Shown here piece after piece: positions 17,018-32,000 of a stretch of DNA of 32,000 bases. Position 1 is the first letter of the stretch. The number at the start of each line of letters is the position of its first letter. A program made the position numbers and the translations under genes. Source of the DNA: Copranaerobaculum intestinale (GTDB lineage: Bacteria > Bacillota_I > Bacilli_A > Erysipelotrichales > Erysipelotrichaceae); the NCBI RefSeq assembly GCF_009831105.1, contig NZ_WUUQ01000002.1, forward strand, positions 150,001-182,000. The letters are read 5' to 3'. The notes beneath the pieces are model-generated. The model did no database searches, was not told the DNA's origin, and was given only the letters and a program-made list of their open reading frames with translations.

Positions 17018-17763
17018 GGATGCGCAGTTATTGTTTAACGGATCAGGGGCTGGTTCGCAAAACCAATCAGGACAGTATTTTATTGACCCATAATCAAAAC
17101 GGGGATCTGCTGGGTGCGGTCTGTGACGGTATCGGCGGCGGAGTTGCTGGCGATGTAGCGAGCGGGCTGGCTGTCGCGGCCTTAAAGGAAGCCTTTCAAA
17201 ATGCCCCGCGTTTTGAAAATGATCAAGGTGCGAAGCAGTGGTTACATAAAGAAATCAGTAAAGCAAATGAAGCAATCTTTGTCCAGGCATCGCAAACCAT
17301 TCATCAAAAAGGAATGGGAACAACGCTGGTCGGGGTATTGATAACGGATCAGGATGCCTATAATTTTAATATCGGCGATTCTCGTACCTATGGGTTATAC
17401 GGTAAGGAATTTGTGCTGCTGACAGAGGATCATAATTTAGTCGGTGATTTGGTGAAATCCGGCGAAATCAGTGAAGAAGAGGCAATGCATCATCCGCAGC
17501 GCAATCTTTTGACGAATGCATTGGGTATTTGGGATCATGTAAAAATCGATATCAATAAAATTAAGCGGGATTTTGACTGCTTGCTGATCTGCAGTGATGG
17601 CTTGCACGGATATGTGTCCAATGAGAAAATTTATCGGGTGCTTATGGAATCTATTGATATCAAAGAAAAAGCTCAGAAGCTGGTGGAGTTATCAAAAGCA
17701 GCCGGCGGATATGATAATGTCAGTGTGATTTTGATCGAGAATGGTGATGCGCATGAAAAATAA
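17014..17763 (+). CDS. prpC: PP2C-family Ser/Thr protein phosphatase
   Basis: TDQGLVRKTNQDS, VCDGIGG, GMGTT and CSDGL...GG.DNVS motifs. The ATG at 17014 overlaps the rlmN stop (ATGA). An ATG at 17020 is an equally plausible start. The ORF track start at 16972 lies inside rlmN. Confidence 0.88.
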   Translation: MRMRSYCLTDQGLVRKTNQDSILLTHNQNGDLLGAVCDGIGGGVAGDVASGLAVAALKEAFQNAPRFENDQGAKQWLHKEISKANEAIFVQASQTIHQKGMGTTLVGVLITDQDAYNFNIGDSRTYGLYGKEFVLLTEDHNLVGDLVKSGEISEEEAMHHPQRNLLTNALGIWDHVKIDINKIKRDFDCLLICSDGLHGYVSNEKIYRVLMESIDIKEKAQKLVELSKAAGGYDNVSVILIENGDAHEK

Positions 17764-19429
17764 GATGATTGCGGATCGCTATATGATCGTATCTTCCATC
17801 GGTGAAGGCGGAATGGCTGATGTTTATCTGGGCATTGATACGATTCTCAATCGTGAAGTGGCGATCAAAATTCTGCGCGGGGAGTTATCCAATGATCCGA
17901 TAACCCTGCTTCGTTTTCAGCGTGAGGCCAATGCCGCAAGCAAGCTGAATCATCCCAATGTGGTAGGTGTCTACGATGTCGGGGAGAGTGAAGGGCGGCA
18001 TTATATCGTCATGGAGTATGTGCGGGGCCGCACTTTAAAACAGTTGATTTCACAGCGCGGTGCTTTGGACAAGGTAGAAGCTGTGCAGATTATGAAGCAG
18101 TTGGTTTCAGCGGTACAGCACGCGCATGAGAATAATATCATCCATCGTGATATTAAACCGCAGAATGTTTTGGTAAAAGATGACGGCACCGTGAAAATTA
18201 CCGATTTTGGAATTGCTTTAGCCCATGATGCCGTACAGCTGACGCAAAGTGATGCCGTGCTGGGCAGTGCTCATTATCTGGCGCCTGAAACAACCCGAGG
18301 AGAACCGGCAACGGTACAGATTGATATTTATGCACTCGGTATTGTTTTTTATGAATTATTATGCGGTGATGTGCCATATCACGGTGATAACCCGGTGCAG
18401 ATCGCGATGAAGCATCTGCGTGAGGAAATTCCGAGTATTCGTGATTTCAATCCTACGCTGCCGCAGTCAATTGAAAACATCATTACCAAAGCGACGGTAA
18501 AGAATCGTTCTCAGCGATACCGCACAGCTCAGAATATGCTGGATGATCTAAACCGCTGTCTGCTGCCGGAGTATGTAGACGTAGCGCCGCTGGTGTTTGA
18601 AGAAGAAAATGATCAACAGGGCTCCACGCGAATTGTAAGCCGGGAAAAGCCGAAACAGGTACAGCCGGAAGAAACAAAGGAAGCGCGTTTTGACCGGCGC
18701 AGTAAGCTGATCATCGGCTGTCTGCTGTTGGCAATTGTGGCTGTCGCGACCGTCGCGGTTCTCTTCTTTACCGGAGTTTTTGATTTTGCGAAAAAAGTAA
18801 CGGTTCCGGATGTGCTGGGACTTGATCAGGATGAAGCCATAGAGCTGCTGGAGAAAAAAGGTCTGGAAATCGATAAGGTTAAACAGGAACTGACAGATGA
18901 TAAAGACAAGAATACCGTTCTTTCACTCAGTTTGAAACCAGGCACTGAAGTAAAAGCAGGCAGTAAGATTACGATTACCGTATCTGCCGGAGAATACTTC
19001 GTCATAGAAGATTATGTCGGCAAAAATATATCAGAGATTGAAGACTTATTCCAGGATTCCCACTTGAAGATAAAAATTGAGAAAAAGGAAACGGCTACCA
19101 GCAGCTATGAGCCGGGAACGATCCTTTCTCAGTCGGGCTTGAAGCGCGGAAAAAAGATCGATCCGTCCAAGCCGTATACAATCACTTTGGAAATATCGAT
19201 GTATCCGCAAGTCACGATTTCCGGTATCAAAGGTATGAAGATCGATGATGCGATCGCAAAGCTGAAAGCGATGGGACTGAAAGTGATCACATCCCAGAAA
19301 TCCACAGTTGATTTTACCGAGGAAGAGCTGGCAAGCCTTCAAAAAGGTGTCGTGGTGGATTCTGATCCAAAAGAAGGAACCTTGTATACGCAAGATGGGA
19401 ACAGCGTGATTACGCTATACTACTATTAA
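17753..19429 (+). CDS. prkC: Ser/Thr protein kinase with three extracellular PASTA domains
   Basis: Hanks kinase motifs GEGGMADVY, AIK, HRDIKPQN, DFG and APE. One TM helix (LIIGCLLLAIVAVATVAVLFF), then three PASTA-like repeats of about 65 aa. Start chosen by the GGTGA spacing. 17741 and 17765 are alternatives. Confidence 0.9.
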   Translation: MKNKMIADRYMIVSSIGEGGMADVYLGIDTILNREVAIKILRGELSNDPITLLRFQREANAASKLNHPNVVGVYDVGESEGRHYIVMEYVRGRTLKQLISQRGALDKVEAVQIMKQLVSAVQHAHENNIIHRDIKPQNVLVKDDGTVKITDFGIALAHDAVQLTQSDAVLGSAHYLAPETTRGEPATVQIDIYALGIVFYELLCGDVPYHGDNPVQIAMKHLREEIPSIRDFNPTLPQSIENIITKATVKNRSQRYRTAQNMLDDLNRCLLPEYVDVAPLVFEEENDQQGSTRIVSREKPKQVQPEETKEARFDRRSKLIIGCLLLAIVAVATVAVLFFTGVFDFAKKVTVPDVLGLDQDEAIELLEKKGLEIDKVKQELTDDKDKNTVLSLSLKPGTEVKAGSKITITVSAGEYFVIEDYVGKNISEIEDLFQDSHLKIKIEKKETATSSYEPGTILSQSGLKRGKKIDPSKPYTITLEISMYPQVTISGIKGMKIDDAIAKLKAMGLKVITSQKSTVDFTEEELASLQKGVVVDSDPKEGTLYTQDGNSVITLYYY

Positions 19430-19430
19430 T

Positions 19431-20300
19431 ATGAAAAAAGGAACCATTATAAAAATTATATCCAATCAGTATGATGTGCTGAGTGAAGCGGGCGATCGCA
19501 TTTCTTGTGTAGCGATGGGAAAGCTGCGCAAATCTCGTTCACCGGTCGTCGGCGATCATGTTTGGTGGGAAACGATTGGAGACAAGAACGGTATCCAGAA
19601 GATCATGCCGCGAAGAAATGAACTGAAACGTCCTTTGATTGCCAATGTGGATCAGGCAATCATCGTGATGTCATCAGTTGATCCCGATTTTTCTTCTACG
19701 CTGATTGACCGTTTGATCTTTCAAATCTGCTATGCGGGAATACGGCCGCTTTTGTGCGTTACAAAATGTGATTTGATCGGGAGCGATCATGTAGTATGGA
19801 AACAGATCGAAGATTATCGAAGCAGCGGGTATGAGGTATATGTCAGCGGTATCGGCTATGATAATCATGATTTGATTTTGGCTTTAAAGGATAAAATCAG
19901 TGTTCTGACCGGTCAAAGCGGCGCCGGGAAAAGCAGCTTGCTGAACCGCATCGAGCCTTCCTTTCACTTACAGACACAGGAAATCTCAAAGGCACTTGGA
20001 CGAGGTAAGCATACTACCCGGCACTGTGAGCTGTGGAAGGTGAAAGAGGGATGGGTAGCGGATACCCCGGGGTTTTCATCCTTAGATTTTTCGACCATGG
20101 ATATGCAAAAGCTGGCGGAATGCATCCCGGATTTTAAACCCTATCAGGGACAGTGCAAATTTCGAGACTGCATTCACCGCAATGAACCGGACTGTGCTGT
20201 ATCGCAGGCTGTTGATGAGAAAAGGATTGTTAAGAGCCGGTATATGCATTATTTAGATATCTTGGATATGATTGAACAGACAAAAACGAAATATCGTTAG
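19431..20300 (+). CDS. rsgA: Ribosome small-subunit-dependent GTPase A
   Basis: Circularly permuted GTPase: NVDQ, TKCDL and GQSGAGKSSLLN. C-terminal zinc motif CKFRDCIHRNEPDC. Confidence 0.9.
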   Translation: MKKGTIIKIISNQYDVLSEAGDRISCVAMGKLRKSRSPVVGDHVWWETIGDKNGIQKIMPRRNELKRPLIANVDQAIIVMSSVDPDFSSTLIDRLIFQICYAGIRPLLCVTKCDLIGSDHVVWKQIEDYRSSGYEVYVSGIGYDNHDLILALKDKISVLTGQSGAGKSSLLNRIEPSFHLQTQEISKALGRGKHTTRHCELWKVKEGWVADTPGFSSLDFSTMDMQKLAECIPDFKPYQGQCKFRDCIHRNEPDCAVSQAVDEKRIVKSRYMHYLDILDMIEQTKTKYR

Positions 20301-20311
20301 GAGGTAGAACG

Positions 20312-20980
20312 ATGCAGGAACTGATTATTTCACCGTCCATCCTGTCCTTGGACTATTCAAAAGTGAGTGAACAGTTGGATGCGCTGAATCACAGCGGAGC
20401 CAAATGGATGCATTTTGATGTCATGGACGGTCATTTTGTACCGAATTTAACATTTGGTCCTGATATTTTGAAGGGTTTCAAGAAAGCGAGCCCCCTGGTA
20501 ATGGATGTGCATATCATGGTAGATGACCCTCAGATGTTTGCGGAAGTCTTTATGAAAGCAGGAGCTGATATTGTGACCTTTCATCTGGAAGCGGTTGAAA
20601 ACATCGATGCCTGTGTGAAGCTGTGCCGTAAGATTCGATCAATGGGCGGCAAAGCCGGAGTTTCACTGAAACCGAATACCCCGGTGGATGCGCTGCTTCC
20701 CGTTCTTGAAGAGCTGGATCTGGTGCTGATCATGTCGGTGGAACCCGGTTTCGGCGGCCAGTCATTTATGGCGCACACTCTTGAGAAAGTGATAATTCTG
20801 CGTCAGGAAATCAGTCAGCGTAACCTACCGGTTCATCTTGAAATTGACGGCGGTATCAACCGTAATACTGCCAAGCAGGCGATTTTAGCCGGCTGCGATG
20901 TATTGGTTGCTGGAAGCTATGTTTTTAAACAGGATATCCGGACTGGAGTTCAATCCCTATTATGCGCCGCGCAATCTTAA
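20312..20980 (+). CDS. rpe: Ribulose-phosphate 3-epimerase
   Basis: SPSILS.D, HFDVMDGHFVPN, MSV.PGFGGQ.F and DGG(I)N. AGGAGG RBS. Confidence 0.92.
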   Translation: MQELIISPSILSLDYSKVSEQLDALNHSGAKWMHFDVMDGHFVPNLTFGPDILKGFKKASPLVMDVHIMVDDPQMFAEVFMKAGADIVTFHLEAVENIDACVKLCRKIRSMGGKAGVSLKPNTPVDALLPVLEELDLVLIMSVEPGFGGQSFMAHTLEKVIILRQEISQRNLPVHLEIDGGINRNTAKQAILAGCDVLVAGSYVFKQDIRTGVQSLLCAAQS

Positions 20981-21558
20981 TTGCCGGTATGGCCAAGCAG
21001 ATTCCCGATCTGGAAGGTGATTATTTTGGGATCGACAGGGGTGCCTTCATCGCCCTTCATCAGGGATTTTCGCTGCAAGCAGCGATCGGTGATTTTGATT
21101 CTATTACAAAAAAAGAGCGGGAAGAGCTTGAAAAAAGCTGCCCGATGGTCGTATTGCCTACCCACAAGAATGAAACTGACAGTGAAGCCGCAGTAAAGCA
21201 TGTGCTTTCACTTGGCTATGATTCTATTTTGTTATATGGATGCCTGGGCGGACGTATAGACCATGAGCTGGCTAATCTTCGGCTTATGACGCAGCGTCGT
21301 TATCCGCTTACGCTGATGAATGAGAAAAACCAGTTGGAGGTATTGAATCCCGGAACCTATACGATTTTCAAAACTAGAAAATATCTTTCCTTCTTGGCTT
21401 TGGAACCGTCGTGTATCAGTGAAGCGCATGTTGCATATCCGCTTGATCATCAAAGGATTGACATGCAGGATATATACACCATATCCAATGAAATTGAGGA
21501 TCAGGCGATCGTAACAATTCACGAAGGACGAGTTATGATGATGCAAAGCGATGATTAA
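20962..21558 (+). CDS. thiN: Thiamine diphosphokinase
   Basis: GDFDS, HKNETDSEAA and GGRIDHELAN motifs. Overlaps the end of rpe by 19 nt. Confidence 0.85.
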   Translation: MRRAILIAGMAKQIPDLEGDYFGIDRGAFIALHQGFSLQAAIGDFDSITKKEREELEKSCPMVVLPTHKNETDSEAAVKHVLSLGYDSILLYGCLGGRIDHELANLRLMTQRRYPLTLMNEKNQLEVLNPGTYTIFKTRKYLSFLALEPSCISEAHVAYPLDHQRIDMQDIYTISNEIEDQAIVTIHEGRVMMMQSDD

Positions 21559-21583
21559 GACGCATTCTTTGCGTCTTTTTATT
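21558..21583 (+). terminator. Rho-independent terminator ending the priA-to-thiN gene string
   Basis: AAGACGC (21558-21564) pairs with GCGTCTT (21571-21577), followed by TTTATT. Confidence 0.7.
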
Positions 21584-21634
21584 GTTTTCAGCTATCTCAA
21601 TCATCTAAACGGCATTCGCGGCAGTTCGCTCAAG

Positions 21635-21665
21635 AAAAAAACCAGACAAGATGGGCTTGCCTGGC
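21635..21665 (-). terminator. Rho-independent terminator of the aldolase gene
   Basis: Minus-strand RNA CCAGGCAAG-cccat-CUUGUCUGG forms 9 bp with one G-U, followed by a 7-U run. On the plus strand the same stem has an A-C mismatch. Confidence 0.7.
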
Positions 21666-21674
21666 TTTTTTTGT

Positions 21675-22562
21675 TTAATGAACAGATGCTTTGTAAATTT
21701 CAAGGATAGCCTGTTTCAGTGCGTTATCAAATTCTTCCTGGGTTTGCTGAGCAGACAAATCTGATAAGAGTGCTCGGGAGAAGCTTGCAATCAAACCCTG
21801 ATTCTTCATCAGAAGATCATCGGCCTCTTTGCGGGTATATCCGCCGGATAATGCGACAACCCGTACGACATGGGGATCATCAATGATTGGTGCGTATAAG
21901 TTTGTTTCGGTTGGAATCGTCAACTTAAACATGAGCAACACATCGTCATCCAATTTCACAAGATGCTCCTGAATTTCCTTCAGCAACAATGCTTCTGCTG
22001 CTTTTTTGGTGCTGCTATTGATGGATACCTCCGGCTCCAGAATCGGAACCAAACCGGCTTTTACAATCTGTAAGCCTATTTCAAATTGCTGATCGACAAT
22101 CTTTTTAATACCTATCGGGTTTGCTTCCTTGATGACACTACGCATTTTTGTACCGAAGATGTGCTTTTCATTTGCGGTTTTCAACAGTGCTTCTAAGTCC
22201 GGCATCGGCTTCATGAGCTGAACATCATCGGCTTCGTCAGCCAAGCCTTTATCCACCTTCAGGAAAGGTACGATTCCTTTCTTCTCCCACAGATAGTCTG
22301 CCGTGTCCATACCTTCCACCTTCGAATTCATGGTTCGCTCAAAGAGAATTGCCCCCAGTATATGCTGTGCGGTGAAAGCACAGCTGGTGATGATACGGCT
22401 GCGCATCTGATGAATGAGATCAAACATCTCTTCATCATTATGAAAGGCTGTTTCCTCGATACCATAAGCTTTCAAAGCTTTTGGGGTACTGCCGCCGCTT
22501 TGATCTAGCGCTGCGATGAAACCGGGATCCTTGCGCATGCGTTCAAATTGTTTTGTGTTCAT
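21675..22562 (-). CDS. fda: Class I fructose-1,6-bisphosphate aldolase
   Basis: 295 aa. GFIAALDQSGGSTPKAL, GAILFE.TM, VPFLKVDKGL, IFGTKMRS and VVRVVALSGGY closely follow the staphylococcal-type class I Fda, as I recall that sequence. Confidence 0.85.
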   Translation of the reverse strand: MNTKQFERMRKDPGFIAALDQSGGSTPKALKAYGIEETAFHNDEEMFDLIHQMRSRIITSCAFTAQHILGAILFERTMNSKVEGMDTADYLWEKKGIVPFLKVDKGLADEADDVQLMKPMPDLEALLKTANEKHIFGTKMRSVIKEANPIGIKKIVDQQFEIGLQIVKAGLVPILEPEVSINSSTKKAAEALLLKEIQEHLVKLDDDVLLMFKLTIPTETNLYAPIIDDPHVVRVVALSGGYTRKEADDLLMKNQGLIASFSRALLSDLSAQQTQEEFDNALKQAILEIYKASVH

Positions 22563-22778
22563 GTATGAGCACCTCCTTTACTTGTATTATATACCCGGAC
22601 TTACATAGTTACGAGTGAAATGTTCAGGGAATGGAAACCGTAAATGAAAAGCTGCCTGCTATGTAAAATAGTTGATGTAAATTGAATAAAATCGGTTCAT
22701 GAATTGGATGCTTTCGATAATGGAAGGAACTGTAAAATTATGTTTTTAAAATTCATGGTAAGATACCTTCAACAGAGA

Positions 22779-22795
22779 TTTCGACACTGTCGAAA
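22779..22795. promoter_or_regulatory. Perfect 17-bp palindrome (candidate operator)
   Basis: TTTCGACA-c-TGTCGAAA, with 8-bp arms, lies in the 378-nt fda/regulator divergent intergenic region. Confidence 0.4.
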
Positions 22796-22940
22796 ATTAA
22801 AAAAAAGATTATATGCAGTGTCTGAAATTTATGATAAGAGGCAGTGAGTGTTGAAACATTTCAAAAGTGTCCGTTTTTTGCATACGCTTTTCTATAATGT
22901 AGTCATCCAAAATACTGCCTCGGATCAGGAGGAAATGTTT

Positions 22941-25661
22941 ATGAATGTCATCAGCACAAAAAAACTGCTGCTTCAGTTTCTGGAGCGAGATGTGGAATTC
23001 AGTATCGAGAGTCCGTATCGCTGTACGACAAGTGATATCAGTGAGACCATGCACATCAGCCGTTCTTTAACGAGTCAGTATCTGAATGAACTGAACAAGG
23101 AAGGAAAGCTAGTGAAAGTAACTTCCCGTCCCGTATATTATTTCAGTACCAAACGGTTAGAGGAATTATATTCCGCAACCGTTGGTGAATTTGAATTTTA
23201 TGATATGGAAGAATTGCATGGTTATTTACAAAAAGGGAAAAACAGCGTTCAAGATTTTCAAAAAGTCATCGGAAATGAAGGAACCCTCAGCTATTGTACG
23301 ATGCAGATGAAGTCTGCAATGCTATATCCGCCCGATGGACTGCCGATTATTTTTCATGGCAGGAAGGGAAGCGGCAAGGCTTATCTGGCGGAAGTCATGT
23401 ATGAATATGGTGTCAACCAAAGAATATTGTCATCACATGCTCATTTTGTAAAAGATCATATTGCTTCAATTCATGAACCGTATGAAGAAGTACTGTTTGG
23501 AACGAGCCATGCGGATCGAATCGTTCCCGGCTTACTTGAAAAAGCTGCCGGAGGACTGCTTTATCTTGGGGACGCGGGAAATATGAATATGGAATGTCAG
23601 CGGCGGCTTACCGCTTATATTACCAAGGGTACCTTTACCAGGATCTATGATGATAAAACGATATTGAATGTAAAGACGCGAATCGTGTTAGGGGTAGAGC
23701 ATGATCTGCATGAACAGCTGTATGATGAACTGCTGCTGAACATACCCGTCGTCTGTGAGATACCTGCGTTGTCGATGCGCCCTCAGGGTGAGCGAAATGA
23801 TATGATCGTCTCATTTCTGATCAAAGAAGCGCAGTCCTTGAAAAAGGAAATTCTGCTGTCAAAATCGCTGTATCAAGTATTCATGGGATATCATTTCCAT
23901 GACAGTATCGATGATATGAACACCAATCTGCGGCTTGCGTGTGCCAATGCCTATGCACAGAGCGGAAATGAAGAAGAAATTCATATGTATCTTCGGCATT
24001 TGCCGATGGAGGTGTTCGGTGACCTGGAATTATCGCTTCGCGGTCGTGACAGCGAAGAACTGCTGGGCGTGGATGAGTTGAAGATGCAGGATGGAAAGCG
24101 TCAGATTCTTCAGTTGTATGAACAGATTCTGGAAGCTCATCAGATGTACCTGGAGCGCACCTTTGATGAACCGGAATGGGTGAATTCAGGATTAAATGCG
24201 ATGCGCTGTTATTATGATTTTATCGTTTTTGAACAGCGTGATGATGACTTGGGAAGAAAGACGATCGCCGCAAAGCTGGAAGAGCTAATATCAGAGGTTG
24301 AGAAACAATTTCAAATTACCCTGCCCTTGAATTGCAGCTTTATTTTAGCAAGGATGGTGTATGCGATCTATCGGATGCAGTCGGAAGTGCAGCTTTGGGA
24401 ACATCAGCACAAGGATGCAATTCACAGCTGTCAGGAAACGCTGGATAAACAACTGCCGGATGTCAGTGCGATGGCTGCTTCGATCATTCGCAAAATTAAC
24501 GGCGCCATGGATGTGAAGCTGGGGACGATGAACACGATCTTTTTGATCTTCAATATTCATTTCTATAACCGGGATGTCATTAACCGTGATACCTGCGGGG
24601 TGATTATCTCACATGGTTATTCCACGGCCACAAGTATTGCCGATGCAGTCAATCAAATGCTGGAAATGCAGGTTTTCAAAGCGATTGACATGCCCTTGGA
24701 TACCGATGTGAAGCAAATCCAGAAAAAGCTGGTCCGCTTTGTGGAACTGCATCCGAATTATCGAAATTTGATCATCATGGTTGATATGGGATCATTGGAG
24801 GAAATTGCCTCCGGTCTGCAAGCCGATATGAATATCGGTGTCATCAACAACATATCAACCGGCCTGGCCCTGGATATCGGAAATCGGATTCAGCGCCATC
24901 AGGAATTGGAGGATATTCTCCAGAATGCATGCCGCGGGTTTGAATGTCATTATCAAATTTTATCCAAGAGCGGTAAAGAAAAAGCAATCGTCTTTACCAA
25001 TGATGTAGGAATGAAGGTTTCTTCAAAGCTGGTGGAGCTGTTCAAGAGCAGTCTTCCGAAAATCATTAATCTGAAGTTTATCGAATACGATTATGACCGC
25101 CTTCAGAAGATGGGAATCCAGGATGTGCTGTTTGATAAATATGAAGTCATTTTGTTGATCAAGCCCCACATGCTGAAGCTGGACGGCATTCAGAGCTTGT
25201 CTTTGGAAGAACTGATCAGCTTTAAATCCATTGCGCAGGTGAATCAAATACTCTCGCAGTACTTGAATGACGCTGAGATTGAAAGCTTTAATAAACAGCT
25301 GCTGAAGAATTTTTCATTGCAGAGCATCATGGAGAATCTAACGATTCTCAATCCCGGCAAACTGCTTGATCAGGTATCAGAAGCGATCACTCAGCTTCAG
25401 CTGTTGATGGATCGCAAGTTTCAAAGCAAAACCATTATCGGCATCTACATGCATACCTGTTTTCTAATTGAGCGGCTGGTTACCAAAACCGCAATTCTTT
25501 CAGATGATATGGATGCTTTTGAAAAAGCACATCCGGATTTTATCCGCAATGTCCATATCAGTTTTGAGAAAATGCTGAAAAATTACAGTGTCGAGATACC
25601 GATCAGTGAGATATCTTATTTATACGACTACATCCAGAACGAAGAATGGGAGGAGAAATAA
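22941..25661 (+). CDS. LevR-architecture PTS regulator (HTH, degenerate AAA+, PRD, EIIA-Man-like, EIIB-Gat-like, PRD)
   Basis: The domain order is readable by eye:
- Winged HTH (ISETMHISRSLTSQYLNEL).
- AAA+-like block (IIFHGRKGSGKAYLAE...GGLLYLGDAG).
- PRD.
- EIIA-Man-like VIISHGYSTATS.
- Second PRD (IGIYMHTCFLIERL).
Start is set at the ATG at 22941, 8 nt after AGGAGG. The ORF track GTG at 22848 adds 31 aa with no RBS. Confidence 0.75.
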   Translation: MNVISTKKLLLQFLERDVEFSIESPYRCTTSDISETMHISRSLTSQYLNELNKEGKLVKVTSRPVYYFSTKRLEELYSATVGEFEFYDMEELHGYLQKGKNSVQDFQKVIGNEGTLSYCTMQMKSAMLYPPDGLPIIFHGRKGSGKAYLAEVMYEYGVNQRILSSHAHFVKDHIASIHEPYEEVLFGTSHADRIVPGLLEKAAGGLLYLGDAGNMNMECQRRLTAYITKGTFTRIYDDKTILNVKTRIVLGVEHDLHEQLYDELLLNIPVVCEIPALSMRPQGERNDMIVSFLIKEAQSLKKEILLSKSLYQVFMGYHFHDSIDDMNTNLRLACANAYAQSGNEEEIHMYLRHLPMEVFGDLELSLRGRDSEELLGVDELKMQDGKRQILQLYEQILEAHQMYLERTFDEPEWVNSGLNAMRCYYDFIVFEQRDDDLGRKTIAAKLEELISEVEKQFQITLPLNCSFILARMVYAIYRMQSEVQLWEHQHKDAIHSCQETLDKQLPDVSAMAASIIRKINGAMDVKLGTMNTIFLIFNIHFYNRDVINRDTCGVIISHGYSTATSIADAVNQMLEMQVFKAIDMPLDTDVKQIQKKLVRFVELHPNYRNLIIMVDMGSLEEIASGLQADMNIGVINNISTGLALDIGNRIQRHQELEDILQNACRGFECHYQILSKSGKEKAIVFTNDVGMKVSSKLVELFKSSLPKIINLKFIEYDYDRLQKMGIQDVLFDKYEVILLIKPHMLKLDGIQSLSLEELISFKSIAQVNQILSQYLNDAEIESFNKQLLKNFSLQSIMENLTILNPGKLLDQVSEAITQLQLLMDRKFQSKTIIGIYMHTCFLIERLVTKTAILSDDMDAFEKAHPDFIRNVHISFEKMLKNYSVEIPISEISYLYDYIQNEEWEEK

Positions 25662-26050
25662 TGCGAAGAATTATTCTGGCATCACATGGTGAAATGGCCA
25701 AGGGGATGAAAAACACATTGGAGATGATAGTTGGCAAGGATGAGCGGATACAGCTGCTGATGTTAATGCCGGGGCATCATCCGGACGAACTGAAACAGCA
25801 GGTAGAAAGGTGGGCAGCTGAGAATCCCGAGGATGAATTTATCATTCTGTGTGATCTGTTTGGCGGCAGTGTCGCAAATGCGCTCATGCATCTGTGTACC
25901 TGTGAAAAAATCCATGTGGTCACCGGGGCAAATTTAGGAATGGCCATTACGATTTGTACCGCAAAAGATGAAGAACCGCTTGCCCAGCTGATTCGCAATT
26001 CTTTGAGCGAAGCAAAAAAGTATATGCTTTATACCAATGATCTCATGTAA
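25661..26050 (+). CDS. PTS mannose/fructose/sorbose-family EIIA
   Basis: RIILASHGEMAKG carries the phospho-His. Length is about 129 aa. The ATG overlaps the regulator stop (TAATG). Confidence 0.85.
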   Translation: MRRIILASHGEMAKGMKNTLEMIVGKDERIQLLMLMPGHHPDELKQQVERWAAENPEDEFIILCDLFGGSVANALMHLCTCEKIHVVTGANLGMAITICTAKDEEPLAQLIRNSLSEAKKYMLYTNDLM

Positions 26051-26067
26051 AAGAAAGGAGGGATATT

Positions 26068-26589
26068 ATGATCAAAATGTTGAGAATTGATGATCGTCTG
26101 CTGCATGGTCAGGTTGTCTTTATCTGGTCAAAACAGTTGGATATCAAGGGAATTGTCGTCGCCAACGATGCTTTACCCGATGATCCGATCCAATCTATGG
26201 CAATGAAAATGGTCGTACCGGAGCACATCAAGCTGCTGATCAAGAAGGTTGATGATGCGGTGCATTTCCTGAATGATCCCCGGATTGAGGGGATGGGCGT
26301 TATGGTGGTCGTAAAAGATCCTGAAGATGCCGCAAGGGTCATGAAAGGCTTGCACAATCCAAATGTTGTTCAAAAGCTGAATATCGGCAACAGCGGTCGG
26401 GTCGATAAAGGGGACCGCCAAAAGCTGACGCCCGAAGTATATGTCGATCAAACGGATATAGCGGCATTGAAAGAACTGCTTCAATATCAAATTCCTTTTG
26501 AGATCCAGATGATTCCGACCAATGGAAAAACGGATGTAAAGGATGCGTTAAGCCATTATCATGAAGCAGATACAGAAAAATCCTCATAA
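26068..26589 (+). CDS. PTS mannose/fructose/sorbose-family EIIB
   Basis: The N-terminal LRIDDRLLHGQVV is the signature phospho-His motif of EIIB-Man/Sor. Confidence 0.88.
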   Translation: MIKMLRIDDRLLHGQVVFIWSKQLDIKGIVVANDALPDDPIQSMAMKMVVPEHIKLLIKKVDDAVHFLNDPRIEGMGVMVVVKDPEDAARVMKGLHNPNVVQKLNIGNSGRVDKGDRQKLTPEVYVDQTDIAALKELLQYQIPFEIQMIPTNGKTDVKDALSHYHEADTEKSS

Positions 26590-26697
26590 AGAGGAGGAAA
26601 GCATCAGGCAAGATGGATTTCTTAAAAGTACATGATCTTTCATAAGAAACAGCAGAGCATGTATGAAAATTAGGGAAAAGAAAGAGGAGGTTACGTT

Positions 26698-27486
26698 ATG
26701 GAATTATATCAGGCTTTACTGATTGCGCTAACGGCCGCAATCGCACAATTTACATTCAACACGATGGGATTGATGCTGAATCGTCCATTGGTTTTGGCTC
26801 CTATTGTAGGACTTATCCTAGGCGATCTGCATCAGGGTATTATCATGGGTGCTGCCTTGGAATTGATTTTTCTGGGCGTTGTTTCGATTGGCGGATCAAC
26901 TCCGTCCGATGCCAACATGGGTTCGGTATTGGGGACGGCCTTTGCCATCAGCATGAGCAAAGGGGTTCAAGTCGCCTTGGCATTATCCGTTCCGATCGGT
27001 ATTCTGATGCAGATGATCACCTATTTAATTTATTTCTTCCGTTCCACAACGATGGACCGCGTTGAAGTGTATGCAGAGCGCGGCGAATTTAATAAAATCA
27101 CAATGCTTCATTTCGGACATCAGTTATTAGAAGTAGCTATCTATGGAATTTTGGCATTTTGTTCCCTGCAGTTTGGGGCTGGGGCAATGAAAAATTTGGT
27201 TGATTCCATCCCGGAGATCGTTATGACCGGATTGGATGTCGCATCACAAATGCTGCCGGCAGTCGGATTTGCATTGCTTATGAATATGCTTTGGAATAAA
27301 CAGCTCTGCATCTTTGTATTCTTTGGGTTCATCCTGGCTACCTATTTGGAACTGCCGATTATCGCCATTGCCGGGATCGCACTTACGATCGGCATCGTTA
27401 TGATTTTGACTGATATGAATATGAAGAGTACAAAAGCTGTTAATCAAGCACCGGTAAGTGCTGAGGAGGACTTCTTCAATGAATAA
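26698..27486 (+). CDS. PTS mannose/fructose/sorbose-family EIIC
   Basis: 262 aa polytopic membrane protein in the canonical position. GAALELIFLG and GGSTPSD are typical of EIIC-Man. GAGGAGG RBS. Confidence 0.8.
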   Translation: MELYQALLIALTAAIAQFTFNTMGLMLNRPLVLAPIVGLILGDLHQGIIMGAALELIFLGVVSIGGSTPSDANMGSVLGTAFAISMSKGVQVALALSVPIGILMQMITYLIYFFRSTTMDRVEVYAERGEFNKITMLHFGHQLLEVAIYGILAFCSLQFGAGAMKNLVDSIPEIVMTGLDVASQMLPAVGFALLMNMLWNKQLCIFVFFGFILATYLELPIIAIAGIALTIGIVMILTDMNMKSTKAVNQAPVSAEEDFFNE

Positions 27487-28294
27487 AATGAGTTTGAGTA
27501 CAGATGAAAAAAAGCTGACCCGTACCCTCTTCTTGCGTTCTTTCATGCTGGAGGCTTCCTTCAACTTTGAAAAAATGCAGGCGTTGGGATTTGCCTGGGC
27601 GATGTTCCCGGTCATTAAAAAATTCTATCCAACCAAGGAGGAGCAGGTAGAAGCGCTAAAACGTCATACGGCTTTCTTCAATATTACGCCTTATATCGTG
27701 ACATTCTTACTAGGATTATCCGCATCGATGGAAAAAGAATATGCGGAAAATAAAAGCATTGATCCATCCATGATCAATGCCGTCAAGGTATCGCTGATGG
27801 GGCCGTTGTCCGGAATTGGTGATTCCTTCTTCTGGGGTACCTTCCGCGTAATCGCCGCCGGTGTCGGTATTTCATTATCCCAGCAGGGAAATATTTTGGG
27901 ACCGATCTTATTTCTATTGATCTTTAATGTTCCGCATTTATTGATTCGTTATTATTGTTCAGTGCTTGGTTATTCACTGGGTTCTAAATTTATCCAGAGC
28001 TCCTATGAGAACGGATTGATATCTCATATGACAAAGCTGGCAACGGTGATCGGTCTTACTACGGTCGGTGCTATGATTTCTACGATGGTTGTTTTCCAGG
28101 TCGGTTTTACGACGAAAATCGGCAGTATGAAATTTGTATTACAGGATATTTTTGATCAAATCGTACCGAATATTCTGCCATTGTCTTTGACCTTCTTCGT
28201 ATTCTGGCTGATCCGTAAAGGGGTTAAAGTAAATTATATCATCATCGGTGTATTTGCTTTTGGACTGCTTGGAACCTTAGTCGGTATTTTATAA
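27479..28294 (+). CDS. PTS mannose/fructose/sorbose-family EIID
   Basis: LTRTLFLRSFMLEASFNFEKMQALGF matches the conserved EIID N-terminus. The ATG at 27479 lies 8 nt after GAGGAGGA and overlaps EIIC by 8 nt. Confidence 0.85.
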   Translation: MNKMSLSTDEKKLTRTLFLRSFMLEASFNFEKMQALGFAWAMFPVIKKFYPTKEEQVEALKRHTAFFNITPYIVTFLLGLSASMEKEYAENKSIDPSMINAVKVSLMGPLSGIGDSFFWGTFRVIAAGVGISLSQQGNILGPILFLLIFNVPHLLIRYYCSVLGYSLGSKFIQSSYENGLISHMTKLATVIGLTTVGAMISTMVVFQVGFTTKIGSMKFVLQDIFDQIVPNILPLSLTFFVFWLIRKGVKVNYIIIGVFAFGLLGTLVGIL

Positions 28295-28346
28295 ATGCTT
28301 CCTCTCCGCAAGGAGAGGATGTATTATGATAGGAAGGAGGAATTTT

Positions 28347-29570
28347 ATGCAAATCATAAAGAGTCATGCAATTTATACGGAATCCGGCATTGTAGACGGT
28401 TATCTTGTTTTAAAGGATAAGCAAATTGATCGAATCTTAGACAAACGCGGTGAGCTTCCTGAAGGTTCGATCATTGATTATGGCTATCACCGTATTTTGC
28501 CGGGCATCATTGATTTGCACACGCATGGGTACCGATCCTTTGCGGCGCGAACCCTGCACTTTGAGGAATGCTTAGGATTTGCCCGGGTAATGCCCTCGAT
28601 CGGGGTAACGAGTTTTCTGCCGACAGTATGCGGGTGGAAGGAACATCAGATAGAAATGATCGAAGCAGTATCCAATGCGATCGCAGTACAAAAGCAGGGA
28701 GCGCGCATGCTGGGTATTCATATGGAAGGCCCGTATTTTCATCCCAGCCGACATAACGCGACACCTCTAACTGAGCTGAAAGAACCAAGTATCAAAGAAT
28801 TTGAGGATTGTCTGAACGCTTCTAAGGGATATCTGCGCTATGTAACCTTGGCTCCGGAACTGCCGCACGCACAGAAAGTTATAAAATGGTTGGATGAACA
28901 CCATATCATAGCCGGAGGCGGTCATACGACAGCGGATTATGAACAGTTTTCAGATGCAAAAGCAAATGGTATGAGGGTAAGCATCCATACCGGTAATGCG
29001 ATGAATCAGATGGATCGCCGTGAGATTGGACTTTTGGGCGGTGCGTTGGCTGATCCGGACATGTATTGTGAGATCAACTGTGATCTGGTTCATCTTTCCA
29101 AAGAAATGCTGGAAATCATGTTCCGGATTAAACAGAATTATGAACGATTTATTATGATTTCCGATTCGGATACGGTCAGCGGGATCGAGCCCGGCTATTA
29201 TCTGGTCGGCAATCAGCGAACCAGGGTTACAAAGGACGGCCGCATGCTGCTGGATGACGGGACGATTGCCGGAAGCTGCCGTAATATTTTATACGGGATC
29301 AGAAATCTGGCTGAAGAATTCCATATCCCATTGACGGATATTTTGAAAATGAGTTCGCTGAACGCGGCACGGCTGCTTAAAATCGATGATCATAAGGGTT
29401 CAATTTTGGAGGGAAAGGATGCTGATTTGGTAATCGTTGATGAAGCGTATGACGTCCTTGAAACCTATGTAGAAGGACAATCTGTTTATCAAGCGAATGA
29501 TGAATTGCCATCGAATCCGCGTTTTTGTGAAGAAGTGCCGATAATTTTTGAAAAGGAGGGTGCTATATGA
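28347..29570 (+). CDS. NagA-like amidohydrolase (N-acetylhexosamine-6-phosphate deacetylase family), paralog 1
   Basis: PGIIDLHTHG (HxH), LGIHMEGPYF, APE, GGGHTTA, HTGNAM, MISDS and G.ILEGKDADLVIVD follow the COG1820 pattern. Start at 28347 follows GAAGGAGG. The ORF track start is 28326. Confidence 0.7.
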   Translation: MQIIKSHAIYTESGIVDGYLVLKDKQIDRILDKRGELPEGSIIDYGYHRILPGIIDLHTHGYRSFAARTLHFEECLGFARVMPSIGVTSFLPTVCGWKEHQIEMIEAVSNAIAVQKQGARMLGIHMEGPYFHPSRHNATPLTELKEPSIKEFEDCLNASKGYLRYVTLAPELPHAQKVIKWLDEHHIIAGGGHTTADYEQFSDAKANGMRVSIHTGNAMNQMDRREIGLLGGALADPDMYCEINCDLVHLSKEMLEIMFRIKQNYERFIMISDSDTVSGIEPGYYLVGNQRTRVTKDGRMLLDDGTIAGSCRNILYGIRNLAEEFHIPLTDILKMSSLNAARLLKIDDHKGSILEGKDADLVIVDEAYDVLETYVEGQSVYQANDELPSNPRFCEEVPIIFEKEGAI

Positions 29571-30727
29571 TTATTCAGAGTGATGCAATTTACACAGAAA
29601 AAGGAAAATACAGCGGTTATATGGAAATTGAAAACGGACATTTTATCCGCTTTTTCGATAAACTACCCAAGCAGGAAGCAGTACTCGACTATCGTGGTTG
29701 CTTGATCCTGCCCGGCTTTATCGATATTCATACACATGGCTATGACGGTCATCATGCGCAGGCGGTGGATAAGCAGGAGCTGATCGCTTTAAAAAAATCT
29801 ATGACGAAGGCGGGTGTTACTGGCTTCTTGCCAACTGCCGGGGCTCATTTTGAACAGGAGTATGATAATCTGAAACAGCTGGCAGATTGTATTGAAGAAC
29901 AGGATTTTGATCATCCAATCGGTGCTCAAATGTTGGGGATACACATGGAAGGCCCTTTTTTGAATCCTGAACGCAGAGGTGCATTTCAACCGTATCAGCT
30001 GCTGCCGGCAGATATTCAAAAGGCATCTGCATATTTGGAAGCAAGCCGCCATCATATCGTTTATATGGCATTGGCACCGGAACTGGATCCTGACGGTAAA
30101 CTGATTCAATACCTGAAGGAACAGGGTGTAAAGACGGCCGGTGCTCATACGACTGCATCGTATGAAGAATATGAGCGTGGGATTCAGCAGGGTTTGTCAG
30201 CATCGACTCATACAGGAAACGGCATGTGTCAGATTGACCGCAGAAATGTCGGAGCACTTGGCGCTGCACTGTTAAATGATGATCTTTATTGTGAGGCGAT
30301 CTGTGATTTTCACCATGTTGACCCAAGGATGCTGGATATTATGTTTCGGGTAAAAAAGGATGGATGCCGCAAATTTATCATGATTTCCGATTCCACAGAA
30401 GTATCCGGTCTGCCAAAAGGAACCTATACTTCTGATGGCATGCAGGTAACCATTCAGGATAATGGGTTGATCCTGGATGAGGAGGGGACGATCATGGGCA
30501 GTGCTCATGATGTACTGTACGGTTTCCAGAACCTGAAAAATAAGATGAAACTGCCGATTGAAGATATTCTGATGATGACGTCACTAAATCCTGCTTCTTT
30601 ATTGGGAATAGCGGATCATAAAGGCAGTATTCTGGAAAATAAGGATGCGGATTTTATCATTCTGAATCAGAAGGATGAATTGCTGGCGACCTACGTACAG
30701 GGAAACTGTGTTTATCAAAAAGCATAG
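29567..30727 (+). CDS. NagA-like amidohydrolase, paralog 2
   Basis: The same motif series is present: PGFIDIHTHG, LGIHMEGPFL, APE, AGAHTTA, HTGNGM, MISDS and GSILENKDADFIILN. There is an ATGA start/stop overlap with paralog 1. Confidence 0.7.
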   Translation: MIIQSDAIYTEKGKYSGYMEIENGHFIRFFDKLPKQEAVLDYRGCLILPGFIDIHTHGYDGHHAQAVDKQELIALKKSMTKAGVTGFLPTAGAHFEQEYDNLKQLADCIEEQDFDHPIGAQMLGIHMEGPFLNPERRGAFQPYQLLPADIQKASAYLEASRHHIVYMALAPELDPDGKLIQYLKEQGVKTAGAHTTASYEEYERGIQQGLSASTHTGNGMCQIDRRNVGALGAALLNDDLYCEAICDFHHVDPRMLDIMFRVKKDGCRKFIMISDSTEVSGLPKGTYTSDGMQVTIQDNGLILDEEGTIMGSAHDVLYGFQNLKNKMKLPIEDILMMTSLNPASLLGIADHKGSILENKDADFIILNQKDELLATYVQGNCVYQKA

Positions 30728-30766
30728 CTTGAAGAGGGCATTGACTGTAAGTATTACATTACTTTT

Positions 30767-30797
30767 AAAGGCTGTATTGAAATCAGCCTTTTTTTAT
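30767..30797 (+). terminator. Rho-independent terminator ending the PTS/amidohydrolase operon
   Basis: AAAGGCTG (30767-30774) pairs with CAGCCTTT (30784-30791), followed by a T-run. Confidence 0.75.
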
Positions 30798-30860
30798 GCT
30801 TTGTATTTTGACCTTCCCCAAAAACTTGATTGCATAACATAGGACAAGTATCCCTACAAG

Positions 30861-30869
30861 TGATATAGT
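30861..30869 (+). promoter_or_regulatory. Candidate extended -10 (TGaTATAGT) for the rubredoxin-fusion gene
   Basis: TG at 30861-30862 and TATAGT at 30864-30869. AGGACA lies 17 nt upstream as a weak -35. Confidence 0.4.
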
Positions 30870-30881
30870 TAAAATAACATA

Positions 30882-30895
30882 TGTAAACGATTACA
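30882..30895. promoter_or_regulatory. cre-like (CcpA-type) operator
   Basis: TGTAAACGATTACA fits TGWAANCGNTNWCA at every specified position. It lies inside a larger palindrome ATATGTAA-acga-TTACATAT, between the candidate -10 and the RBS. Confidence 0.5.
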
Positions 30896-30915
30896 TATAT
30901 GGAGGAGGCTTTGCT

Positions 30916-31566
30916 ATGAAATATGTTTGTACAATATGCGGTTACATATACGATGAAGCCGCAGGCGCCTTAGAAAGCAGAATACCGCCTAATACCCCTT
31001 GGGATGCTCTGCCTTCCGATTGGGTCTGTCCGATTTGCGGCGCACCGAAAGATGTATTTGAAAAAGCGGAAGAGGAAGCACCTGCGGCAGTTAAGGATGA
31101 ACCTTTGACATCTTTTGATGCATCGTGGAATCAGTTGGCATTGAGTGCTTTGTGTTCCAATCTGGCAAAAGGCTGTGAAAAACAGTATCTTGCTGAAGAA
31201 GCAGCTTTATACAACCAGCTGGCTGCTTATTTTGAGACGAAAGCAGTGCCAAAGGAAGGCAATGTACAGGATCTTTTAAATCAGGTCGAACAGGATTTAA
31301 AGGAACTTTATCCGGCTGCTAAACAAGCTGCGGATGACGCCTATGATCGAGGGGCAAAGCGTATTCTGGTATGGAGTGAAAAAGTAAAACGGATCCAAGA
31401 ATCATTATTGAAACGATATGAAACAGAACAGCAAAATCTGATTAAGGATACCAAAGTGTATGTTTGTGAAATCTGCGGTTTTATTTATGTTGGAGATACA
31501 CCGCCTGAGGTATGTCCTGTCTGTAAAGTTCCCAGCTTTAAGCTGGTAGAAGTGGAAAGGGGTTGA
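30916..31566 (+). CDS. Rubredoxin / helical domain / rubrerythrin-type C-terminal rubredoxin-like fusion protein
   Basis: N-terminal [10 protein letters not shown]...[11 protein letters not shown] is a canonical rubredoxin. C-terminal CEICGFIY...CPVCKVP resembles a rubrerythrin C-terminal FeS4 domain. The intervening ~130 aa is helical and contains no His or ExxH. Confidence 0.7.
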
Positions 31567-31571
31567 AAGCC

Positions 31572-32000
31572 ATGTTTGCGGTAAGAACGATACGATTATG
31601 TACGAAGGATTGCTTATGTCTTTATGTGTGTCCTACGGGTGCCAGTGATACAGAGAACGGTCAGATTGATTGGAGTAAATGCATCGGCTGTGGTTTGTGT
31701 GCAAAGGCATGCCCCTCTCATGCAATTTCCATGGTACCGGAAAAATATCCTGCTCAGCAAAAAAAATCAGAAGCAGTTGAAAATACACTCAATGCTTTGA
31801 TTGAAAGTACGGTAAAACAGGAAGCAGTCGCAGGATATATTGCCCATACTTCTAAGGATCCGATCTTATCTCAGTTTGCGACAGCACTGAAAACTTCAAA
31901 TCGTTTAATGAGTGAGGATTTGTTTCGGGAAGCCGGCTACATGCTTCCGCAGAGTAAAAATGCTCATGCCTTTCTGCGATCTTTGTTGGATGATCCGGAG
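31572..32000 (+). CDS. 4Fe-4S cluster-binding protein, 3'-truncated at window edge
   Basis: Not in the ORF track because there is no stop in the window. Hand translation from the ATG at 31572 is open for 143 codons to base 32000. CTKDCLCLYVCP and the canonical CIGCGLCAKACP are present. It starts 5 nt after the previous gene. Confidence 0.6.
   Translation, partial: MFAVRTIRLCTKDCLCLYVCPTGASDTENGQIDWSKCIGCGLCAKACPSHAISMVPEKYPAQQKKSEAVENTLNALIESTVKQEAVAGYIAHTSKDPILSQFATALKTSNRLMSEDLFREAGYMLPQSKNAHAFLRSLLDDPE

Follow-up and report, generated by a model that had tools for sequence, protein, structure and literature searches.

We analysed a 32,000-nt window of DNA from Copranaerobaculum intestinale DONG20-135 (Erysipelotrichaceae), in whose coordinates all positions are given below, and found a seven-gene operon in which a mannose-family phosphotransferase system (PTS) is combined with two NagA-family amidohydrolases, here called Amh1 and Amh2, and a LevR-like regulator. 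This operon is probably a self-contained module for the uptake and deacetylation of one or more N-acetyl or N-acyl hexosamines, in which the PTS would supply Amh1 and Amh2, the two enzymes would act independently of each other, and the regulator, uncoupled from sigma-54, would control its own operon. The reading is carried by the conservation of the gene set in other genomes, by the intact catalytic residues of both enzymes, by the loss of the GAFTGA and Walker B signatures of the regulator, and by a conserved promoter footprint.

Genes were called from a listing of open reading frames (ORFs) together with Pfam and NCBIfam profile scans, which agreed with the initial annotation of the window on the seven co-directional genes and on the identities assigned to them. 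The genes lie on the same strand at 22941-30727, in the order regulator-EIIA-EIIB-EIIC-EIID-Amh1-Amh2. All seven products are exactly the RefSeq proteins WP_160624879-885, several neighbouring products likewise equal RefSeq proteins of this species, and the NCBI start sites agree with ours (lengths in amino acids, aa):

22941-25661, + strand: regulator, 906 aa; Sigma54_activat (partial), EIIA-man and PRD domains; same start as WP_160624879
25661-26050, + strand: PTS EIIA, mannose family, 129 aa; PF03610, E 4.5e-19
26068-26589, + strand: PTS EIIB, sorbose/mannose type, 173 aa; PF03830, E 4.6e-41
26698-27486, + strand: PTS EIIC, 262 aa; PF03609, E 8e-71
27479-28294, + strand: PTS EIID, 271 aa; PF03613, E 1e-98
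28347-29570, + strand: Amh1, NagA-family amidohydrolase, 407 aa; signature W97, (K/R)HNATP loop (N137, T139), I213, ISDSD
29567-30727, + strand: Amh2, NagA-family amidohydrolase, 386 aa; signature H94, (K/R)(K/R)GAF(T/Q) loop, T214, ISDSG

Conservation and variants of the gene set

Relatives of the cassette were found by neighbourhood look-ups and tblastn. This comparison of homologous neighbourhoods, which the initial annotation had proposed, recovered the same seven-gene order in Holdemania sp., H. filiformis, and H. massiliensis (L012-L014), in the Holdemania-like, metagenomic contigs L004, L005, and L099-L103, in a third context (L006), and in a close relative (L097), with protein identities of 44-78% across the conserved sets in other contexts. 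The genes flanking the relatives' cassettes are unrelated to those of the window, and nothing beyond the seven genes is co-conserved. Since the order is kept in other genomic contexts, the set is not a chance arrangement. Homologues of Amh1 (46-76% identity) are common in gut metagenomes, and the contigs that carry them typically also have a homologue of Amh2.

Cassettes with a single enzyme also occur. An Amh2-type enzyme stands alone in L015 and in cassettes that immediately precede the twin cassette of L012, L013, L099, and L101, and an Amh1-type enzyme stands alone in L098, from a low-GC metagenomic organism, where a terminator and then an AT-rich stretch come after the gene. The proposition that Amh1 never occurs without Amh2 was rejected on the strength of L098. 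The cassettes of L012 and L013 (160-12415; Holdemania sp. and H. filiformis) are arranged in tandem, with IIA-IIB-IIC-IID and a single Amh2-type gene preceding the full twin cassette. L015 (209-10492; a metagenome-assembled genome labelled Faecalibacterium sp.) holds IIA to IID, a single amidohydrolase gene, ptsI, and, on the opposite strand, a GAFTGA-positive LevR-type regulator, with rpoN adjacent. It is apparently not the published N-acetylgalactosamine (GalNAc) cluster of F. prausnitzii, which has lacC, gatY-kbaY, and the candidate regulators ptsH/rhaR/immR, whereas L015 has ptsI, a LevR-type regulator, and rpoN.

The transporter and its twin amidohydrolases

The mannose-family transporter is complete, and EIIA, EIIB, EIIC, and EIID all score well over the Pfam gathering thresholds. 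The N-terminal MRRIILASHGEMA of EIIA (...ASHGEMA...) holds the xHG motif and EIIB reads LRIDDRLLHGQVV (motif RIDDRLLHGQV); we take the histidines of these two motifs to be the phosphorylation sites, as in IIA-Man and IIB-Man. Identity of IIC and IID is ~67-78% among twin and single cassettes. To other Erysipelotrichaceae amino-sugar loci the PTS is 32-41% identical, and to the canonical aga-like cluster L010, which has SIS, PfkB, and DeoC genes, 32-36%.

Amh1 and Amh2 are 43% identical to each other, 34% to Bacillus subtilis NagA, 28% to Escherichia coli AgaA, and 25% to E. coli NagA. Both exceed the equivalog cut-off of the TIGR00221 nagA model by a modest margin (259.9 and 252.3 bits, respectively, against 225.65) and align over their full length with B. 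subtilis NagA (2VHL; E 5.6e-53 and 1.5e-49). In an alignment that includes these three reference enzymes (A3), the invariant positions include D56, E127, H193, H214, N217, R225, H249, and D273. H58 and H60, which form the HxH motif, are invariant within the Amh1 clade (alignment A1), and HxH is present in Amh2 as well; in E. coli NagA the two positions are taken by Q and N. All metal ligands, the catalytic Asp, the His that contacts the anomeric hydroxyl, and the phosphate-binding Asn and Arg are retained in both Amh1 and Amh2, the metal, catalytic, and phosphate contact roles being those defined in mycobacterial NagA (PMC6016474). Since the active-site and phosphate residues are intact, both proteins are predicted to be catalytically active and to deacylate a 6-phospho amino sugar, in keeping with the PTS. 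The initial annotation had considered that homology might place the pair among non-sugar amidohydrolases; both belong to the NagA family. After the HxH motif, Amh1 and Amh2 read HGY..., versus HGGxG in canonical NagA.

In a neighbour-joining tree with a motif read-out, the Amh1 and Amh2 types fall into two clades. Of the alignment positions compared across 36 Amh1 and 30 Amh2 sequences, 86 are conserved with the same residue in the two clades, and only seven, each conserved within either clade, discriminate between them (Amh1/Amh2): L82/M, P83/A, W97/H, N137/G, T139/F, I213/T, and V332/I. Several of these fall within or beside known active-site motifs. Mapped on mycobacterial NagA, N137 and T139 flank Ala-138, whose backbone binds the C3 hydroxyl; T139/F corresponds to MM His-139 and MS His-134, which face the N-acyl carbonyl; and I213/T immediately precedes a metal-ligand His. 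W97 would lie in the loop after the second strand. Single-enzyme relatives (L015 and the upstream cassette of L012) show the Amh2 states, which argues that Amh1 is the derived copy. We therefore read Amh2 as the enzyme that would keep the ancestral job and Amh1 as a putative neofunctionalised duplicate, with a pocket changed on the N-acyl/C2-C3 side. That the Amh1 and Amh2 types each occur alone makes an obligate heteromer improbable, and likewise an obligate two-step reaction; since both keep the complete catalytic set, neither appears to be a pseudo-subunit. The suggestion in the initial annotation that the PTS imports an N-acylated amino sugar and that the two paralogues have distinct roles is strengthened by the intact NagA residues, by the active-site differences between the clades, and by the occurrence of each type alone.

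A LevR-like regulator without sigma-54 coupling

The regulator has a LevR-like domain order, with a winged helix-turn-helix (HTH; weak, residues 23-64), Sigma54_activat (119-262; Pfam E 1.8e-13), a PRD (weak, 447-540), EIIA-man (554-619), and a second PRD (815-900). An EIIB-Gat-like domain was not detected in the regulator by domain scans, and the best NCBIfam match, DagR, reaches 313 bits against a cut-off of 1400. In the alignment to Aquifex NtrC1, a five-residue deletion falls exactly at GAFTG of the GAFTGA loop, and in Walker B LLYLGD replaces LFLDE, i.e., GD stands for DE. The same GAFTGA deletion and degenerate Walker B occur in four twin-cassette orthologues and in every database homologue retrieved (28/28). 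Walker A (GxxGxGK) is kept in the C. intestinale regulator and is degenerate or gone in several homologues. All orthologues keep ISHGYSTA, with the EIIA-like His, and (Y/V)(I/M)H..FLIERL, with the His of the second PRD; these histidines presumably match the phosphorylation sites of LevR. Since they are conserved, control by PTS phosphorylation is probably retained, by analogy with LevR.

Loss of GAFTGA marks the sigma-70-dependent homologues of enhancer-binding proteins (EBPs), e.g., TyrR, DhaR, and HupR, and GAFTGA deletions abolish sigma-54 activation (PMC3162934). In addition, Erysipelotrichia rarely have EBPs or sigma-54 itself (PMC12316311). To judge from these motifs, the protein is most likely a regulator without sigma-54 coupling and not a sigma-54 activator. 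In contrast, the L015 regulator has GAFTGA and FLDE, a perfect -24/-12 promoter, TGGCACGCTATTTGC, stands 40 nt upstream of its EIIA gene (L015:209-223), and rpoN and ptsI are next door. The sigma-54 control implied by the initial label of a LevR-type regulator and by its parallel with the gfr operon does not stand up, given the deleted GAFTGA, the degenerate Walker B, and a promoter with a conserved TATAAT and no -24/-12 element.

The GAFTGA-less type of regulator is also found elsewhere. In L096 (896-8055; GCA_020025755.1), a LevR-like protein of this type, which shares 43% identity with the C. intestinale regulator, heads an operon of an AP_endonuc_2 TIM-barrel gene, IIA, IIB, IIC, IID, and SIS. 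Since this operon differs from the cassette, the regulator subfamily is broader than the cassette, and its design, with the regulator gene in front and independent of sigma-54, has been reused for other substrates.

The promoter was read in the 378-nt intergenic region upstream of the regulator (22563-22940), whose extent is as first annotated. No match to the -24/-12 element (TGGCAC-N5-TTGC, sought as TGG-N9-TGC) was found in 22563-22940, in the orthologous promoters, or upstream of EIIA; two matches lie inside the regulator gene, both poor. Promoters of five loci (the window, L004, and L012-L014; alignment A2), whose regulators are only ~44% identical, share the following features, written as they read in the window:

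22779-22795, + strand: box 1, perfect palindrome TTTCGACA-C-TGTCGAAA; inverted repeat with two ASTGTYGAAA copies, one per strand
22816-22822, + strand: box 2, CAGTGTC, core AGTG(T/C)C; AGTG.C columns invariant in 5/5 promoters
22847-22864, + strand: box 3, AGTGTTGAAA, with overlapping palindrome TTGAAACATTTCAA; AGTGTTGAA invariant in 5/5 promoters
22893-22898, + strand: -10 box TATAAT, sigma-70 type; TATAATG (22893-22899) invariant in 5/5 promoters

The box centres (22787, 22819, and 22851) are spaced in 32-nt steps, or ~3 helical turns; those of boxes 1 and 3 precede the predicted transcription start by ~118 nt and the -10 box by ~37 nt, respectively. The core of box 1, TTCG(A/T)CACT, is conserved in the promoters of L004 and L012-L014, and CATC at 22904-22907, near the predicted start, is invariant in all five. 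ASTGTYGAAA occurs four times in the window, against 0.28 expected, and three of the four copies are in the operon promoter. No good -35 hexamer precedes TATAAT, and this weak -35 fits an activator-dependent promoter.

Proposed function and alternative explanations

The operon would function as follows. The mannose-family EIIA/B/C/D would import and phosphorylate a sugar, presumably at position 6, since both enzymes keep the 6-phosphate-binding residues of NagA. Amh2 and Amh1 would each cleave the N-acyl group of a hexosamine 6-phosphate, releasing acetate (or another acid) from the amino-sugar phosphate, and they would do so independently, on related but different substrates or forms that probably differ around the N-acyl/C2-C3 side. 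The product, glucosamine 6-phosphate (GlcN-6-P) or a close relative, would then pass to enzymes encoded elsewhere, i.e., NagB/AgaS toward glycolysis, or GlmM and GlmU toward the cell wall. The regulator most likely binds the three ASTGTYGAAA-type boxes and activates the sigma-70-type promoter, and its EIIA-like and PRD histidines would give substrate induction and catabolite control through PTS phosphorylation. With the regulator gene in first position, expression would be autoregulated.

The domain scans found no deaminase/isomerase, kinase, or aldolase gene within the seven-gene unit, as the initial annotation had stated for NagB/AgaS-type, kinase, and aldolase genes. GlcN-6-P is a central metabolite. 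Moreover, for Streptococcus pneumoniae, nagA, nagB, and manLMN are given as genes or operons that are induced separately (PMC5110562). On both counts, the missing downstream genes are only mildly unusual, and less striking than the initial annotation had made them.

A further, more tentative reading, to which we give a small chance, is that Amh1 (W97, HNATP) deacylates an amino-sugar phosphate that lacks a described deacylase, candidates being an N-acyl variant (e.g., N-glycolyl), a C2 epimer, or a C3-substituted hexosamine 6-phosphate. The operon would then be a two-substrate salvage cassette, and its regulator would represent an undescribed class of PTS-controlled, sigma-54-independent, LevR-like activators from the sigma-54-poor Erysipelotrichia.

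Several observations weigh against the uptake and deacetylation module proposed above, or at least against its details. Where canonical NagA has TH(L)(Y/F)NAM, both enzymes have HTGN(A/G)M, and at the position 12 residues after the active-site Glu (Glu+12) Amh1 has Thr and Amh2 has Phe, compared with His or Gln in canonical NagA (Gln in B. subtilis). In mycobacterial NagA, this residue is a His (MM His-139, MS His-134) that lies <3 A from the N-acetyl carbonyl, and its mutation nearly abolishes activity (PMC6016474). Judged from these changes and from that at Glu+10, N-acetylglucosamine 6-phosphate (GlcNAc-6-P) itself may therefore not be the substrate. On the transporter side, all of the substrate-specific NCBIfam cut-offs are missed (AgaW 199/300, AgaF 69.5/130, AgaE 168/500, and ManZ-type 242/365 bits), and the best models disagree, being AgaW for IIC, AgaF for IIA, and ManZ or a generic model for IID; the PTS substrate cannot be named from sequence. 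The three boxes are putative regulator binding sites and the transcription start is predicted, both from conservation, and a promoter with no -35 could be served by another alternative sigma factor. The search for nagB, agaS, and rpoN genes covered the 32-kb window, and our literature search on amino-sugar use by C. intestinale or Holdemania returned nothing relevant.

Other explanations of the twin enzymes have to be weighed against independent roles. An ordinary GlcNAc/GalNAc operon with redundant deacetylases, in which the duplication is functionally meaningless, would resemble the overlap of NagA and AgaA in E. coli. The annotation of the two enzymes is NagA and each passes the nagA model, NagA of E. 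coli is able to substitute for AgaA (PMC12118421, PMC3668189), and the Erysipelotrichaceae are known GalNAc users (PMC8063399). However, both copies are kept across genera down to ~50% identity with their own signatures (W97, N137, and T139 vs. H, G, and F), where decay would otherwise be expected, and the PTS of the canonical Erysipelotrichaceae aga cluster is the distant one of L010 (32-36% identity); we regard redundancy as doubtful. An obligate heteromeric deacetylase for a single substrate, with the NagA active site at the dimer interface and an Arg from the partner, seems to us somewhat less probable still. It would explain that in twin cassettes the genes are always adjacent, Amh1 then Amh2, and are ATGA-coupled in the window and in L006; in NagA dimers the neighbouring subunit does give an Arg to the phosphate site (PMC6016474), and the RR pair is kept in both paralogues. 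Yet L015 and the cassette that precedes the twin in L012/L013 have the Amh2 type alone, L098 has the Amh1 type alone, each enzyme has a complete catalytic set, and the Holdemania genes are 15-84 nt apart with no overlap. The discriminating positions, moreover, include the active-site loop and not known dimer-contact regions, as judged on sequence. Least likely among the explanations that concern the enzymes is a doubly N-acylated substrate, for example a di-N-acetylated sugar or a phosphorylated disaccharide such as chitobiose-6'-P, from which the two groups are removed in sequence. The operon does have two deacylases, and in other mannose-family PTS loci of Erysipelotrichaceae a NagA-like protein is accompanied by a deacetylase from another family, e.g., YdjC in Dielma (L011). 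Against this stand the lack of a glycoside hydrolase or phospho-glycosidase gene in the cassette and the existence of single-enzyme versions of both types with a PTS ~70% identical; we also know of no downstream route for a diamino sugar.

For the regulator, the alternative is a working sigma-54 EBP like LevR or GfrR, as the NCBI name 'sigma 54-interacting transcriptional regulator' has it. The Sigma54_activat match, the LevR-like domain order, and the Walker A motif retained in C. intestinale speak for it. Nevertheless, we hold it to be highly improbable, since GAFTGA is deleted, a change that abolishes sigma-54 activation (PMC3162934), Walker B has gone from DE to GD, neither the operon nor EIIA is preceded by a -24/-12 element, and the relative L015 displays how a sigma-54 version is built.

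Comparison with known systems

Like the cassette, the aga/gam regulon of E. coli (AgaVWEF, the GalNAc-6-P deacetylase AgaA, AgaS, KbaYZ, AgaR) places a mannose-family PTS beside a deacetylase of the NagA family whose substrate is the product of the PTS, and the best-scoring models of the cassette's EIIA and EIIC, below their equivalog cut-offs, are AgaF and AgaW. However, aga/gam has AgaS and an aldolase, whereas the C. intestinale unit has no AgaS, kinase, or aldolase; it has one AgaA where two deacetylases, 28% identical to it, are found here; and its repressor AgaR is of the DeoR type, as opposed to the LevR architecture. AgaA also reads HCYNGM in place of HTGN(A/G)M, on which ground HTGN was rejected as a marker of GalNAc specificity; the HTGN motif is common to Amh1, Amh2, and the deacetylase of the aga-like Erysipelotrichaceae cluster L010. 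With NagA of B. subtilis (2VHL), E. coli, and mycobacteria, Amh1 and Amh2 share the family, the predicted fold, the binuclear HxH/E/H/H/D site, and the Asn and Arg phosphate contacts, but they are only 25-34% identical to it and differ at Glu+12, in the change of (L)(Y/F) to TG beside the metal His, and in the loop after HxH.

The gfr fructoselysine/glucoselysine operon (GfrR, GfrABCD, GfrE/GfrF) of Salmonella, enterococci, and clostridia has, as here, a regulator of LevR domain order, a mannose-family PTS, and two paralogues for two related phospho-substrates. The parallel ends with the enzymes and the mode of control: GfrE and GfrF are SIS-type deglycases, while the C. intestinale pair is Amidohydro_1/NagA with no SIS domain anywhere in the window, and GfrR is listed among sigma-54 EBPs, while the C. 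intestinale regulator has no GAFTGA. A closer gfr-like relative of the regulator subfamily is L096 (AP_endonuc_2, PTS, SIS). LevR of the B. subtilis lev operon has in common with our regulator the domain order HTH, AAA+, PRD, EIIA-Man-like, PRD, the control of a mannose-family PTS, and the regulatory histidines; LevR, however, needs sigma-54 (SigL) and a -24/-12 element, whereas our regulator has lost GAFTGA and Walker B, its promoter is of the TATAAT type, and its gene comes first in the presumed target operon. TyrR, DhaR, and HupR likewise have an AAA+ domain with GAFTGA deleted or altered, which predicts sigma-70 dependence (PMC3162934), but they carry PAS, GAF, or receiver domains and a C-terminal HTH in place of the PRD and EIIA-like domains and N-terminal winged HTH found here. 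No example of a GAFTGA-less EBP homologue with LevR architecture was found in the literature searched.

Other loci met in the comparison contain NagA-like proteins in different settings. A NagA-like protein of L010 (2154-3371) and the proteins P0069, P0072, and P0076, all encoded beside SIS genes, have Lys in place of the metal His of HxxN (QKTGNCM) and Glu in place of the Asp before HxH (EHHIHG or EMHVHG), and may be paralogues that are altered or have no catalytic activity. L007/L008 (5272-16685; Tissierellia, biogas metagenomes) combine a neutral-ceramidase-like gene, IIA, IIC, IID, IIB, two SIS_2 genes, and two NagA-like genes (40% and 33% identical to Amh1 and Amh2) with a GFO/IDH/MocA oxidoreductase, two HAD phosphatases, and a GntR regulator, and this large mannose-family PTS locus looks like an undescribed amino-sugar pathway. 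L011 (4354-11934; Dielma fastidiosa-like) has an Mga-type regulator, a mannose-family PTS, a YdjC-family deacetylase, a NagA-like protein (THTANVM), and a HAD phosphatase; a second mannose-family PTS at 17523-21182 adjoins a sulfatase.

Operon layout and surroundings

The initial annotation had described the genes as tightly or translationally coupled, which is true of three of the six junctions: TAATG at 25659-25663, where the EIIA start lies on the regulator stop; the 8-nt overlap of EIIC and EIID at 27479-27486; and ATGA at 29567-29570, where the Amh2 start lies on the Amh1 stop. The other three are looser (EIIA-EIIB 17 nt, EIIB-EIIC 108 nt, EIID-Amh1 52 nt). A ribosome-binding site, AGGAGG, precedes the regulator at 22927-22932. 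Two hairpins were located, the second being the terminator that was first annotated at 30767:

28300-28319, + strand: GC-rich hairpin TCCTCTCC-GCAA-GGAGAGGA; directly after the EIID stop, no T tract
30767-30796, + strand: intrinsic terminator AAAGGCTG-N9-CAGCCTTT followed by a T-run; from the hairpin scan

A hairpin is present at the EIID-Amh1 junction in 4/7 loci (the window, L004, L012, and L014) and absent in L005, L006, and L015; those of L004, L012, and L014 are GC-rich and in the same place, but non-homologous to that of the window. The hairpin at 28300-28319 may act as an intra-operon stabiliser or a partial attenuator that tunes the transporter:enzyme ratio. Its 3' arm, GGAGAGGA, resembles a Shine-Dalgarno sequence. 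The EIIB-EIIC spacer (26590-26697) is unusually long at 108 nt, compared with 12 nt in the orthologue L004, and holds short ATG-initiated frames. No match to Rfam families (riboswitches, e.g., glmS, or other RNAs) was found in 21500-32000.

In the rest of the 32-kb window, domain scans found no nagB, agaS, SIS, sugar-kinase, or rpoN gene, and the other genes are of the housekeeping kind: gmk, priA, rsmB, rlmN, a PP2C phosphatase, a PASTA kinase, rsgA, rpe, and thiamine pyrophosphokinase. Next to the operon and divergent from it is a gene for a class I fructose-bisphosphate aldolase (21675-22562, - strand; 295 aa; partial, weak PF00274 match, E 4.6e-8); it was rejected as a member of the unit, since it is absent from the cassette's other genomic contexts. 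Downstream of the cassette, 30916-31566 (+ strand) encodes a protein of 216 aa that has a rubredoxin domain at its N terminus and a rubredoxin-like domain of the rubrerythrin type at its C terminus. The aldolase gene, the cassette, and this rubredoxin-type gene sit together between the rsgA-rpe-thiamine pyrophosphokinase block and rpmB. Elsewhere in the window, 6120-7388 (+ strand) encodes a 422-aa protein of three tandem RidA/L-PSP (PF01042) domains, and such a triple fusion is unusual.

Significance

The cassette is a variant of known systems, an aga/nag-like PTS and deacetylase unit combined with an EBP homologue that has lost sigma-54 coupling. The abundance of gut Erysipelotrichaceae tracks the amino sugars of host glycans (GalNAc and ABO genotype; PMC8063399, PMC12118421). 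The cassette is probably a second amino-sugar PTS system in this family, apart from the canonical aga cluster, and its substrate would add a nutrient niche. Its twin enzymes, with few substrate-facing differences, offer a natural experiment on how specificity is set in the NagA family. As to the regulator, the 'sigma 54-interacting' label given by NCBI is an annotation error, the parts needed for sigma-54 being missing. Indeed, the whole subfamily, on the evidence of 28/28 homologues, appears to have shifted from sigma-54 to sigma-70-type promoters under the control of PTS domains, and, with more than 3,500 members in one cluster, this shift affects predictions of sigma-54 regulons in Bacillota. 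The regulator subfamily and the twin enzymes present well-defined, testable problems in cultured gut bacteria.

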